Assembly (NCBI GenBank): GCA_051652765.1
Contig: JBOFUV010000131.1
Location: forward strand, 32,001-96,000
DNA: 64,000 nt
Source of the DNA: Microcoleaceae cyanobacterium
Lineage (GTDB): Bacteria > Cyanobacteriota > Cyanobacteriia > Cyanobacteriales > Microcoleaceae
Direction of reading: 5' to 3'
Shown here: piece after piece, positions 16,643 through 22,600 of the stretch
Layout of the letters: each line of letters starts with the position of its first letter
How positions within the stretch are numbered: position 1 is the stretch's first letter
Program-made: the position numbers

Positions 16643-19600
16643 CTAAAACTCAATTAAAACGTTCTCCTATTGTAGGAATCTTACACGAATCTAGCTATTC
16701 TAACGTTTAACTATTCTTACAATGTTTTTACAATGTAAACTTTTGCTGTTTCAGGAGTCGCCCAATCTATCTAAATCGTCTCTCAAGGATTTTTGTAACA
16801 AGCATTTTTGTAAATCACTTCAGCTTCTATGCCTAAAGTTTTAAAACGTTGTGTAACAGCTTCACTATCTTCAACCCAAAGTTGAGGATTATCACTGTAG
16901 AGACGAACCGTTTGTTGATGATTTTGACCTAGAACCAAGACTTCGATTGGGACTTTAACTGCATGGGGATTGCCCGAGTATTCGGTCAGAACAGCCTTCA
17001 GATCATTCAACATTTGAGCTTCCTTTAAAATTGTTTTAGGGAATACTTTAAGCCTGACGACTGGCTGAGAAAATGATTGAATAGAACGATCAGATATCTG
17101 AGAGGTTACTTCTGGCTGAAGCGCAACTGTTGATGATTGAACCAACTCAAACTTAGATAGTTCAGATGTTAATAACTCAGGTTTAACTGACTCAACTGTT
17201 TCAACAATCAGTTGAATCTTATCTTCATCCCGACTATCAGAGCAATCGGCTCGACCTGTGATTAGAACAACTTCGCCTTCCTTCAGTTGATTTTGAATCG
17301 CTTGATAAGTTCGCGGAAAAACGACTGCTTCAACTTGTTGCGTTAAGTCTTCTACCTGTAAAAAAGCCATCGGATCACCCTTTTTTGTAACGTGAAACTT
17401 GACCGTTGTCAGCATTACAATTGCCTTGATCATAGACTTGCTTTTCTGTTCTGAGATCTCAGATAAAGTGATCACATCTGGATCTGAATTTGCGGCAACA
17501 ATTGTTTTTAAAGGGTGATCTGAAACATAAAATCCTAGCAATTCTTTCTCAAATTGTAACTTTTCTTGGGTTGGAAAATCTTCAACTTTGGGGGCAGGAG
17601 GAGCATCCTCATGGGATTGACTGGTCAACGAAGTTTCACCCAGAAGATCAAAAATACTGCCTTGACCAATCGCTCGATCTTTGGCCTTATTTTGCGCCCA
17701 AGCCGTTAACTTTTCTAGATGCTGAATCGATTGTTTGCGATTTGGATTTAGACTGCTCAGTGCACCACATTTCACTAAAGATTCTAAAGCACGACTATTC
17801 ACAATCTGTAGACTAACGCGATCGCAAAAATCTGCTAAATCCTTAAATTTTCCACCCTCATGACGAGCAGACAAAATATTCTCAATTGCCCCCTCTCCAA
17901 CATTTTTAATTGCAGAAAGACCAAAAATAATTTTGCCATCTGTTGGCGTAAAATCAAACCCCGATTGATTGACATCTGGCGGGACAACATTGATCTTTAG
18001 TCTCCGTTGACAAGAATCAATATATTTCTGAATTTTATCAGTAGTGCCACTGTTTTCTGTGAGTAAAGCCGCCATGTACTCAACAGGATAGTTTGCCTTT
18101 AAATATGCCGTAATATAAGTTACATAGCCATAGGCAGTCGAGTGAGATTTGTTAAAACAATACTCTGCAAACTTAACCATCTTGTCGAACAAACTTTTGG
18201 CAATCTTTTGATCAATTCCATTTTCACTTGTCCGAGCAATAAAAGTTTCCTGGTGCTTTTCCATCTCTGAGACTTTCTTCTTTCCCATAGCTCGACGGAG
18301 TAAATCTGCTTCGCCCAGGGAATAATTTGCCAAGTCCTGAGCGACTCTCATAATCTGCTCTTGATAGACTAAAATTCCGTAGGTTTCTTGAAGAATGGGT
18401 TCCAACAAAGGATGCTCGTATTCAATCGGTTCTCGGCCATGTTTGCGATTAATAAAATCAGGAATCAAACCTGCATCAAGCGGCCCTGGTCGATAGAGGG
18501 CTAGAATCGACGATAAATCTTCAATACTAGACGGCTTCAGATCCCTAACAATTTGTCGCATTCCTGAGGATTCAAGCTGAAAGATGCCTTCTAAATCTCC
18601 TTTAGCCAGAAGATGATAGGTTTTTTGAATATCTTCGGGCAGTTTTTTTGCTGTACCACGGGCTAAAATTTCCATGGTTTTCCGTTCAGAGGCTGGAAGT
18701 TCATAGGGGTCAATCGTCAGGCTATAATTCTGCTGAATATAACCGAGCGATCGCTGGATTGTTGTTAAATTCTTCAGCCCTAGGAAATCCATTTTCAACA
18801 ATCCAATGGCCTCAATATCTTCCATAAAATATTGAGTAATCACGGCCCCGTCATTATTTCTTTGGAGTGGAACAATTTCATCCAAAGCCTCCTTGGAAAT
18901 TACAACTCCAGCTGCATGAACCCCAAAGGTTTTATTAGTACCTTCAATCCGAATTGCCATGTCTAGCCATTGTCGCACTGGAATTGTATTGATCTCTTCT
19001 CCAGCATCATTCTTAATTGGAACGTGTTCTTGTTCATAAGCCGTTTTAAATTCTAATGAAGGCGTTTCATCAGAAATCATGACCTTAAGCTTTGCAGGTT
19101 TTCCACGGGATACCGGAATTAACTTTGCCATTTGATCCGATTTACTATACGGAATTCCCAGAACTCGCGCCACATCTCTTAACACCGCCTTGGATGTCAT
19201 CCGATTGAAGGTAATAATTTGAGAGACCTTATCCTTGCCGTATTTGTCTGTAACATATTGAATCATTTCATCCCGCCGTTCAATACAAAAGTCCGTATCA
19301 ATATCCGGCATTGACTTTCGTTCTGGATTTAAAAATCGCTCAAATAACAAGCCATGATGAACGGGATCAATATTTGTAATTTCTAGTGCATAAGCGACCA
19401 GAGAACCTGCTGCCGAACCTCGGCCAGGGCCAACTGGAATATCATGATCTCTGGCATATTTGATATAGTCCCAAACCACCAGAAAATAGGTTGAAAATCC
19501 CATTTTCTGCATCATTTTTAGTTCGTAGTCTAAGCGCTCTCGATAAACAGAACTGACTTCAGTCCGATTGTCTGCTTTTAATCGTTCTAGGAGTCCTTGC

Positions 19601-22600
19601 CAAGCGACTTCTTCTAAGTAGGTATCGGGAGTATAATTGGCAGGCAGTGGATAATCTGGGATGCGGGGTTCCCCTAAAATTCCAGTATAGTCCTCAACTT
19701 TTTCAGCAACGGTTACTGTGTTGGCGATCGCGGTTTTGATCACATCTTCTGGTAGATGATCTTGGAACAATTGAGCCATTTCTTCAGCAGATTTTAAATA
19801 TTCTGTACCGCTATAGCGCATTCGTCGCTCATCTACAATTAATTTTTGCGTGTTGATACACAACAAAGCATCGTGAGCTTCAACGTCATTGCAGGAGATA
19901 AAATGAGAGTCATTAGTGGCAATAATTTCAATGTCAAATTCCCGCGCAATTTTTACGAGTTCAACATTCACTAAACGGTCTTCAAGAGAGCCATGATCTT
20001 GAACTTCAAGATAGTAGTCTTCTTCAAAAATTTGCTTGTACCATTGAGCAATGGTTCGAGCTACATCATATCTGCCTTGCAAAATAGCTTGAGGAATTTC
20101 TCCTCCCAGACAGGCACTCGTGACAATTAAGCCTTCATGATATTGTTCTAACAGTTCTTTGTTAATACAAGGACGAGCAAAAATTCCCTTTCCTTGAAAT
20201 CCTTGAAGATGGGAAATCGTCGTGAGTTTAACCAGATTTTTATAACCTTGAGTATTTTTAGCCAAGACAACCTGATGGTATTTTTTTCGTCGAGTTTCTT
20301 GCTTTTCAAGTTCCCCATTGACTACATACATTTCATTCCCAATAATGGGTTTAATTCCTTTGTTTTGACAGAGTTTAATCAACTCGACTGCCCCGTACAT
20401 TACCCCGTGATCGGTAACAGCGATTGCTGTCATTTCTAACTCTAATGCTCGATCAATCAATTGGGGTAATTGAGACGCTCCATCCAGCAAGCTATAATCA
20501 CTATGAATATGTAACCCAACAAAAGACATAGATTTAAGTAGTCAAATAAATAAGATGATTGATTTTCGTAATCTTAACACTATCTGGACTTCTATTTTAG
20601 TTGAAACGCTACATTGTCTGGGGTTAAAAACAGCAATTCTTTGTCCAGGTTCACGGTCTGGCCCGTTAACAGTTGCCTTTGCTCAACACCCTGAAATCGA
20701 GTCAATTCCTATCTTAGATGAGCGTTCTGCTGCGTTTTTTGCCCTAGGAACAGCTCGAAAATCTGGCCTACCTACGGTTTTAGTCTGTACATCCGGAACA
20801 GCAGGAGCTAATTTCTATCCTGCGGTCATTGAAGCTAAAGAAAGTTGTATACCTCTGATTATTTTAACAGCCGATCGCCCCCCTGAACTGAGAAACTGTC
20901 ATGCTGGACAAACCGTAGATCAAGTAAAGTTATATGGCCATTATCCCAATTGGCAAATGGAGTTGAGATTACCTGCAATTGAGTTCAAAGCATTATCCTA
21001 TCTTCGACAGATGATCATCTATAGTTGGGAGCGATCACTAATCCCTATTCCCGGCGTTGTTCATCTCAATCTTCCCTTTGATATCCCTTTAGATCCGATC
21101 TCAAAACTAGAGGCTAATGCCCTAGAAAATCAGTTTCCAACTGATTTTTTTATAACTGTAAAACAGGGAAAAAACATCCGTTCAGTCTTGGATTTGGAAC
21201 CTCCTCTTACCTCTTATTTAAGTCATTGGCAGTCTTATGATCGTGGTATTTTAATTGCGGGAGTAGCCCAACCCAATTGTCCTCAAGTTTATGCTCAAGC
21301 TGTTATGCAATTGGCTCGTTTTTTGAATTGGCCAATCTTAGCTGAAGGGCTATCTCCTGTGCGGAATTATCATCATCTTTACGAACCGATCATTTCAACC
21401 TATGATTTGATTTTACGTAATCCTCAATTAGCAGAATCCCTATCCCCTCAAGTTGTGATTCAAGTGGGGGAATTGCCCACAAGCAAACTGTTGCGTACTT
21501 GGCTTGAAGAGACTGCCGTTGAGACTTTTATTTTGGATTCAACCTATCAAAATCTAGACCCATTACATCGTCCAACATTACATTTGCGAATCTCGATAGA
21601 ACAGCTTCTAGAAGTTTTGTTATCAGAGAACTTCTTAACCTCAGATCCAGCAAAGCCGTCTACTTATTTAAACCAATGGTTGAATGTAGAAATTCAAGCT
21701 AGAGCCTTGATCAACGAGGGGATGAAAACCTTAGATGAACTAATAGAGCCTAAGGTTTCCTGGCTACTTCCTCAAGTTTTGCCGATGAAGACTCCCATTT
21801 TTATTTCGAATAGTATGCCTGTTCGGGATGTTGAATTCTTTTGGCAGCCTAATTCTAGTCAAATTCAACCCTTTTTTAACCGGGGGGCAAATGGAATTGA
21901 TGGAACTTTATCAACTGCATTAGGCATTGCTCATCGGAATCAAAGTAGTGTTTTGCTGACGGGAGACCTGGCCCTTTTACATGACATTAATGGGTTTTTA
22001 TTCCACAATCAACTTCGAGGACATTTAACAATTTTATTAATTAATAATCAAGGCGGTGGGATTTTTGAAATGCTACCGATTGCTAGATTTGATCCCCCAT
22101 TTGAAAAGTTTTTTGCCACTCCTCAAGCGATTAATTTTGCTCAACTGTGTACCGCTTATCCAGTTGCTTATCAGATGATTTCATCTTGGTCAGAACTAGA
22201 AAGGGCTCTGAGTCCTTTACCTCAGTCTGGAATCCGAGTTCTGGAAATTTGCACGAATCGGAAATCAGACGCATTATGGCGATTGCAATTATTTAATCGG
22301 TTCAGCGTCGAAGACCTGAATTTAGGGCTTTAAACAGGAGCTTGAGCCAGTAAAGCATCTAGATTTCCGGCTGTATTCAGGTGATGGAGATCGTCACAGC
22401 CACCGATGTGTTGATTGTTGATAAAGATTTGTGGGACTGAACGACGACCATTCGCCCGCTCTGACATTTTAATCCGGGCGGCTCCGTCGCCGTCAATTTT
22501 GTATTCAGTGTATTGAACTCCTTTCCACCACAGGAGTAACTTTGCTCGAATGCAATAGGGGCAGGTTTGCCAGGTATAAATTTCGACGTTAGCTTTAACC

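Follow-up and report, generated by a model that had tools for sequence, protein, structure and literature searches.

The dnaE gene of the window (the whole 64,000-nucleotide stretch of Microcoleaceae DNA that was analysed) appears to be the empty, recipient allele of a homing cassette that homes, decays and unlinks in related cyanobacteria, a reading to which we give a probability of roughly 0.7. As an earlier note on this DNA had claimed, the gene is a single intein-free ORF of 1248 aa: the ten-residue junction at which relatives carry the split intein was contiguous, and a search of the window genome found no IntN, IntC or endonuclease, and no dnaE match besides this single copy. The encoded protein contains the PHP, DNA_pol3_alpha, finger, HHH_6 and OB fold domains of a Pol III alpha subunit and, scoring 1825 bits against NCBIfam PRK07374 (cut-off 1653), is an ordinary intact cyanobacterial DnaE that showed no difference from this group. 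In a fractured gene a split intein breaks up the host gene; the window gene is not of this kind but an empty allele. The features of the locus are as follows:

15677..16639, minus strand: light-dependent protochlorophyllide reductase, downstream neighbour (TIGR01289, 519 bits, cut-off 331)
16783..20529, minus strand: dnaE, DNA polymerase III alpha subunit, intact and intein-free (ORF call and Pfam)
18145..18174, minus strand: empty intein site, contiguous (Tyr790 codon up to 18160, Cys791 codon from 18159)
20555..22333, plus strand: menD, divergent and upstream, 25 bases from the dnaE start (TIGR00173, 464 bits, cut-off 244)
22330..24847, minus strand: glutaredoxin-like ORF and two PspA-like genes (PspA matches under the curated cut-off)

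The glutaredoxin-like ORF is presumably of this kind, the name being taken from its CPYC motif. Similar glutaredoxin-like and PspA-like ORFs were seen upstream of the split dnaE in G032 and G033, and a similar glutaredoxin-like ORF upstream of the empty dnaE in G030 (by eye, from ORF ends), so that the dnaE locus looks orthologous across relatives.

Occupied relatives carry, exactly at the position of the empty site of the window, a cassette of about 1.19 kb containing IntN, a LAGLIDADG gene and IntC, and some contigs jump by exactly 1193 bases at this point relative to the occupied allele. The 30-base span 18145..18174 is a candidate target of the cassette endonuclease. The order dnaE-N/IntN, free-standing LAGLIDADG gene, IntC/dnaE-C was found in 32 of 32 loci as far as the contigs reach. 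The same tandem layout, previously reported for eight of eight loci outside the family, was recovered in 17 of the 19 such loci examined here, while one more was cut by a contig end and the endonuclease match in the nineteenth (G290) turned out to be an unrelated 592-aa paralog. The setting of these alleles is a bacterial chromosome, as in G007 with its single 7.7-Mb contig. IntN (about 100 aa) starts with Cys and is fused to dnaE-N, IntC (36 aa) ends in Asn ahead of CFNKSH and is fused to dnaE-C, and the insertion at the ten-residue junction has Cys1, the terminal Asn and Cys+1. We take this site and these intein halves to match those of the Ssp and Npu split DnaE intein (PolIII-alpha insertion point a), which has the same lengths of IntN and IntC.

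The endonuclease gene has its own start and stop and lies in a different frame from both halves. The claim that it overlaps both of them was borne out at the IntC start, where the overlap is 8 nt almost everywhere with GGAG upstream in most loci, but not at the IntN end, where the gene mostly abuts (TAA-A-ATG) and overlaps in some loci only. Its 3'-end supplies the start codon of the downstream IntC/dnaE-C and is retained after endonuclease decay. The final codons of the endonuclease gene contain the ribosome-binding site and run into the IntC/dnaE-C start, so that the three genes probably form one translationally coupled unit. As dnaE is an essential gene, and from the motifs, we infer that the occupied alleles are expressed and that the polymerase is restored through protein trans-splicing.

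The middle ORF was positive for LAGLIDADG_3 in the three copies scanned (E 2e-8 to 2e-10), as had been proposed. It encodes a monomeric LAGLIDADG protein of 259 aa with a helix-turn-helix-like N-terminal part, in which both motifs are kept (D82 and D171/D173 did not vary among the 60 aligned homologs) and the catalytic motifs are invariant down to 56% identity. The best PDB matches of the predicted structure (pLDDT 89.5) were LAGLIDADG homing endonucleases (E 8e-8), so that two motifs, acidic catalytic residues and a matching predicted fold were all present. The predicted model shared the two-motif fold of I-LtrWI, I-AniI, I-DmoI and PI-PfuI with a Foldseek probability of 1.0, although at only 11-21% identity and a TM-score of 0.41-0.56; unlike these enzymes, it has an extra N-terminal helical part and its own gene between split-intein halves. 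Across 29 Microcoleus copies dN/dS was 0.20, and 30 of 37 near-full copies were uninterrupted (seven were broken).

Endonuclease matches were obtained in 39 of 144 family genomes. In line with the claimed absence from empty-allele genomes, none was found by the family search in the window genome, G022 or G023. The earlier count of 25 of 400 order genomes in seven families became 32 of 401, again in seven families, with 28 of the matches full or large; the match in G185 is weak. The gene occurred in seven of the 11 families that also contain empty alleles and was not found in any of the 180 order-sample genomes from 18 split-only families. In the phylum sample it was found in five of 261 genomes, all within the family, but this says little on other orders because the sample consisted mostly of non-photosynthetic relatives and genomes searched before.

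A 100-aa junction query was run against 143 family genomes; 138 genomes besides that of the window gave a match, and in 72 of these it was uninterrupted (71 at full length, G001 ending at a contig edge), somewhat above the 64 of 138 counted previously. The alternation of empty and split alleles, often as sisters, was reproduced: at least 27 changes of state were required on the rpoB tree among 90 scored rows, and seven starred empty/occupied sister pairs were seen on each of the rpoB and N-extein trees. The N-extein tree gave 36 changes among 121 N-exteins, within the 31-49 obtained with shuffled labels. Genomes with fewer than 700 rpoB codons or lacking a scored dnaE, and N-exteins with more than 30% gaps, were left out of the trees. 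G126 and G127 are intein-bearing, G022 and G024 are empty, and G032, G033, G044 and G109 were scored as occupied, not as empty. Both alleles were present in one MAG (G060) and together in three of four sequence runs, where the alleles of one run may belong to different species.

The endonuclease dN/dS, the shared occurrence of both alleles in runs and the absence of the endonuclease from split-only families are signs of live mobility, as are the low divergence of the cassette and the tree conflict described next. In one Microcoleus clade the direction of change leans towards gain by homing. Among the 36 genomes of this rpoB clade, synonymous diversity was 0.05 in the cassette and 0.17 in rpoB of the same hosts, and G038 and G107 differed by 0.4% in the cassette and by 13% in rpoB. 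In AU tests, cassette data rejected the host clades (p-AU 2e-6 and 4e-4) and extein data rejected a cassette clade (p-AU 7e-5). Tree conflict alone does not show drive, because Microcoleus recombines widely and the rpoB and dnaE trees also differ; moreover, the cassette synonymous rate may be lower (0.22 against 0.33 and 0.34 against 0.50 in two distant pairs). Near the site, diversity was lower among occupied than among empty alleles (ratio 0.36, against 0.88 far from it; MAFFT alignment, with G043, G045, G060e and partial alleles left out in parts). This dip gave p 0.003-0.017 with means and 0.10-0.20 with medians, for a first window picked after low cassette diversity had been seen and for related genomes that are not independent. 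It was weaker once divergent alleles were removed (p 0.09, 22 rows) and absent in a second clade (p 0.31-0.62) and genus-wide (p 0.19). The 25 codons immediately before the site were diverse in occupied alleles too, whereas tight co-conversion would predict otherwise. A nearest-neighbour test per window gave no clear signal, and its 0.92/0.95 peak at codons 841-900 was an artefact of pairwise gap placement. G125 and G129 carry a second intein near codons 743-748, and the large distances that pairs with this intein show at codons 741-790 were excluded.

A single ancient gain followed by repeated loss, with empty alleles produced by precise deletion or by recombination with empty donors and the endonuclease as a slowly decaying passenger, is an unlikely account of these data. 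In its favour, the cassette tree mostly tracks the extein tree at the genus level, general recombination is heavy, the diversity dip is not robust, parsimony counts are blind to gain versus loss, and, besides the broken near-full copies, 23 of 60 fetched occupied family alleles had lost all or most of the endonuclease. However, a passenger would not hold the low dN/dS and the invariant catalytic motifs, the endonuclease is confined to families where targets exist, and in the one clade with signal the cassette is younger than its hosts and the occupied class is less diverse. The two readings overlap, because a homing cycle must include some loss.

Far less probable is that the empty alleles are whole foreign dnaE genes from intein-free lineages that displaced the split gene. 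Intact dnaE in the outgroup rows listed and in 20 of 26 sampled cyanobacteria of other orders would provide donors, and the C-terminal part of G116 is distant from all relatives, but a single clade of empty N-exteins was rejected (p-AU 1e-50), empty and occupied sisters were only 2-6% apart in most windows and the gene neighbourhood is similar, which largely refutes such replacement for the family. It is even more improbable that the three ORFs are one cis intein with its endonuclease, read through ribosomal frameshifting or RNA splicing or broken by assembly error, for although the endonuclease sits where inteins hold their homing domain and the frame changes at both joints, the stops, the separate start codon and GGAG before IntC are preserved in seven families, the distance at the IntN end is not constant, the GGAG leader persists where the endonuclease is lost, and RNA-labelled runs (contigs only, weak evidence, indicative of neither expression nor splicing) lack a joint excising the endonuclease alone.

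Under the homing-cassette reading, an empty dnaE from a close relative would meet an occupied allele, the endonuclease would cut the empty site, and repair would copy the cassette plus some flank into the cut allele. Deprived of targets, the endonuclease would decay and leave its 3'-end behind as the dnaE-C leader; the halves might then remain in tandem, re-fuse as a cis mini-intein, gather other genes between them, or unlink. Adjacent halves would keep the site exchangeable with empty alleles, and unlinked halves would lock the split in, as in the textbook lineages.

The decay series described earlier was found again in the family: endonuclease remnants, an IS insertion, re-fused cis mini-inteins and unlinked halves, those of G120 and G131 still carrying the endonuclease 3'-end ahead of IntC. 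Among the endonuclease-free split alleles of mixed families, 24 of 60 had their halves side by side and in order, whereas none of the 83 split-only genomes checked did; "halves at separate loci" thus holds in 83 of 83 split-only genomes and fails for those alleles of mixed families that are in tandem or cis form. It looks as if unlinking of the halves, not splitting, is the irreversible step. Descent of split-only lineages from the same endonuclease is only inferred, because none of the 20 IntC loci examined in families that are split-only or nearly so had a credible remnant (three weak matches among them were out of register and were discarded).

The split was probably not a one-time, irreversible event. 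The same claim in the earlier note stands insofar as "irreversible" and "fixed" fail on the repeated state changes; a single origin is not necessarily refuted, because the genus-level agreement of cassette and extein trees would fit a single ancient origin and later circulation between close relatives. We lean towards the view that the best-known natural split intein represents the fixed end state reached by a homing element of the chromosome, which continues to cycle in filamentous cyanobacteria and in which a split, trans-splicing intein is itself mobile by way of its own free-standing LAGLIDADG gene, with all predicted fractured-gene steps and reversion to natural cis inteins in one family, and with irreversible unlinking on more than one occasion.

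The fractured-gene model (Dassa 2009, PMC2677866) and patchiness read as loss (Uyeda 2016, PMC5029880) are already in print. The loci of Dassa et al. were metagenomic and probably from phages, with GIY-YIG or Vsr-like enzymes and DnaE split elsewhere, and the cyanobacterial split, with its halves at separate loci, was regarded as one irreversible event. Occupied relatives share with them adjacent N and C halves, each with its split-intein part, a free-standing endonuclease gene between, and an endonuclease 3'-end giving the downstream start codon. They differ in the descriptive, not defining, enzyme type and phage setting: here the enzyme is LAGLIDADG, the loci are chromosomal, the site is the cyanobacterial one itself and empty alleles occur alongside. 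In contrast to the tandem alleles, the textbook split DnaE intein has its halves far apart and no endonuclease. The passages and supplements searched in PMC5029880 describe clades mixing taxa with and without the DnaE intein as one gain with convergent loss, use the intein to place Pseudanabaena and Synechococcus elongatus, and yielded no mention of an endonuclease; a literature search found no published description of the cassette LAGLIDADG endonuclease.

Dassa et al. asked how an essential replicative polymerase splits without a lethal intermediate, and a cassette that is complete on arrival, bringing a stop, a ribosome-binding site and a start, answers this question. Split-intein homing becomes testable in culturable strains, the cassette endonuclease represents an uncharacterised meganuclease family whose target is predictable, and the case for using the DnaE intein as a character gained once, to order the cyanobacterial tree, becomes weaker. 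Finally, whereas every intein known from this site of insertion was described as split (PMC4760082), natural single-chain inteins with four different fusion joints were read at the dnaE site in seven genomes, which provides naturally occurring cis forms of the intein family that protein engineers use most.

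The dnaE gene of the window was found as a single uninterrupted feature:

16783-20529, minus strand: dnaE, intact, a single ORF of 1248 aa

A Pfam scan found the five Pol III alpha domains in its product, which also scored above the curated threshold of the model for intact cyanobacterial DnaE. The ten-residue intein site was unbroken, with Cys791 starting at 18159. Neither a second dnaE (genome-wide tblastn) nor IntN, IntC or endonuclease (tblastn and profile search) was found in G000, the genome of the window, so the claim of the earlier note that this dnaE is contiguous and intein-free held. 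By itself it is an ordinary, already known gene, and the finding depends on its relatives. The dnaE and menD genes diverge, start to start, only 25 bases apart (20529-20555), so each gene's promoter must sit within the other gene. Between dnaE and a glutaredoxin-like gene, menD is inverted relative to two relatives (G030 and G033), and the 3' ends of menD (plus strand) and the glutaredoxin-like ORF (minus strand) overlap by 4 bases (22330-22333). A PspA-like tandem pair (256 and 229 aa; 23211-24847) scored under the curated PspA cut-off.

With a 100-aa junction query, the site was empty in all three genomes of the genus of G000 and uninterrupted in 72 of the 138 other family genomes with a match (143 searched), one genome (G060) bearing both forms; 115/398 matching genomes of the order sample were uninterrupted. 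Allele state changed at least 27 times on the rpoB tree (91 rows, 90 scored) and 36 times on the N-extein tree (121 rows), compared with 31-49 changes when labels were shuffled. On the latter tree a single clade of empty alleles was rejected (p-AU 1e-50) and empty and occupied alleles were starred sisters in G115/G116, G005/G012, G060e/G109, G036/G043, G062/G065, G110/G111 and G073/G078, bearing out the alternation proposed previously. Because the site was uninterrupted in the outgroup rows listed, the empty allele represents the deep ancestral state.

Tandem occupied alleles consisted of dnaE-N with IntN (about 100 aa) closed by a stop, then an ORF of 259 aa in a different frame, and IntC (36 aa) with dnaE-C, the insert being mostly 1188-1200 bases long. 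The middle ORF usually started one base past the IntN stop, and its last codons contained GGAG and overlapped the IntC start by 8 bases. This layout was kept, up to contig ends, in the 32 loci examined, Chroococcidiopsis and Leptolyngbya records included, and in 17 of 19 loci of other families. The ORF matched LAGLIDADG_3 in all three cases scanned, its predicted structure (pLDDT 89.5) matched LAGLIDADG homing endonucleases, and both LAGLIDADG motifs were invariant across 60 aligned homologs; the best 120 of 204 homologs showed 56-94% identity. Distant relatives (27-33% identity) away from dnaE, L257 (G290) and G401:C81:9065-9685, one of them a 592-aa protein with repeats, are possible sources of the enzyme.

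Several signs suggest that the cassette is still mobile. As to selection, the endonuclease had a dN/dS of 0.20 over 29 Microcoleus copies (0.32 within one clade), and 30/37 near-full copies were uninterrupted. As to the youth of the cassette, within a 36-genome rpoB clade synonymous diversity was 0.05 for the cassette versus 0.17 for rpoB in the same 15 hosts (0.165 in empty hosts), and G038 and G107 differed by 0.4% in the cassette versus 13% in rpoB. Cassette and adjacent extein trees conflicted, three clades, each named from the other tree, being rejected, a sign of independence of the cassette from the gene that carries it. Diversity was lower in occupied than in empty alleles near the site (ratio 0.36 close to it and 0.88 farther away; permutation p 5e-4), also in symmetric windows with means (p 0.003-0.013); as a sign of direction this is suggestive only, because the dip did not hold with medians in symmetric windows, in a second clade or genus-wide. 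In three of four runs compared with the locus L033, contigs skipping exactly 1193 bases occurred alongside contigs covering the cassette; in run X1 their depths (9.5 and 18.1) summed to about the flank depth. Such co-occurrence would give the cassette an opportunity to move. The two alleles within one run may belong to different species. A full or large endonuclease was present in 28/103 alleles, split or cis, from 11 mixed families (in 7 of them) versus 0/180 genomes of 18 split-only families. Kin are non-independent in these counts, and at most three genomes represent each of 11 of the 18 split-only families; the counts are signs that its presence depends on the availability of targets.

Among 60 occupied family alleles fetched, the endonuclease was near-full in 37, a remnant in 7 and missing in 16. 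The decay series comprised internal stops, frameshifts, an IS66 nested within an IS630 (G111), deletions retaining both ends or the GGAG leader alone, single-chain mini-inteins with four distinct fusion joints (G122, G123, G045, G258, G417, G275 and G306), ordered halves separated by unrelated genes, and unlinked halves retaining the endonuclease 3' end (G120 and G131). As cargo between ordered halves, family f12 had a large kinase/AAA/GAF/histidine-kinase gene and f35 had restriction- and defence-like genes (L278, L279 and L280). None of the 83 split-only genomes checked out of 180 (complete assemblies preferred where possible) had its halves side by side in order, and in 24/60 endonuclease-free alleles of mixed families they lay within 10 kb, separate contigs in draft assemblies being no proof of unlinking. 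This pattern would fit a lock-in of the split. At 20 IntC loci from families that are split-only or nearly so, no credible endonuclease remnant was found. At L277 (G368) the native order is reversed: dnaE-C immediately precedes dnaE-N, both on one strand. A single-ORF allele (L292 632-1500, G265), with an intein apparently under 90 aa long and no IntC match, is possibly a step toward loss.

The observed anatomy, distribution, conservation and decay series are best read as a homing cycle between close relatives, to which we assign a probability of roughly 0.7. The cassette genes would be translated in a coupled fashion, the DnaE halves joined by protein trans-splicing, the empty site cleaved by the endonuclease, and the cut empty allele repaired from an occupied one. 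Some loss certainly takes place when occupied alleles recombine with empty ones, but that such loss alone accounts for the pattern seems improbable. Uyeda 2016 (PMC5029880) explains mixed clades by convergent loss. Across genera the cassette tree was mostly the same as the extein tree, so that an early origin followed by circulation on a local scale explains the data better than long jumps made frequently. The previous interpretation, a repeatedly changing split intein, is supported by the state changes, layout and decay series, and the direction is only tilted toward gain.

Dassa 2009 (PMC2677866) gives the definition of a fractured gene, predicts both LAGLIDADG cases and uncoupling, and treats the cyanobacterial split as single and irreversible; Novikova 2016 (PMC4760082) describes the inteins at this insertion point as all split, and the reviews consulted restate the textbook view. 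A full-text search, with most subscription journals outside its coverage, listed no paper describing an endonuclease that lies between the dnaE halves of cyanobacteria. The system comprising the empty allele of the window and its occupied relatives is a new form of fractured gene.

In genera g2, g6, g7, g13, g14 and g15, other dnaE cis inteins, near residues 720 and 743-748 (L110, L111, L117, L121-L124 and L127-L136), were gained or lost independently of the split site. G116 (L010 1048-6586) had an empty site and another intein near residue 720; all relatives differed strongly from it in the C-terminal part, and downstream lay an incomplete second copy of residues 743-890 that carried a deletion. 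This allele may have been emptied by recombination or may be an assembly artefact. The one-contig genome G030 had two rpoB loci (G030:C1:5080163-5083320 and 6300011-6303160), one split over two frames and the other within a 1960-codon open frame.
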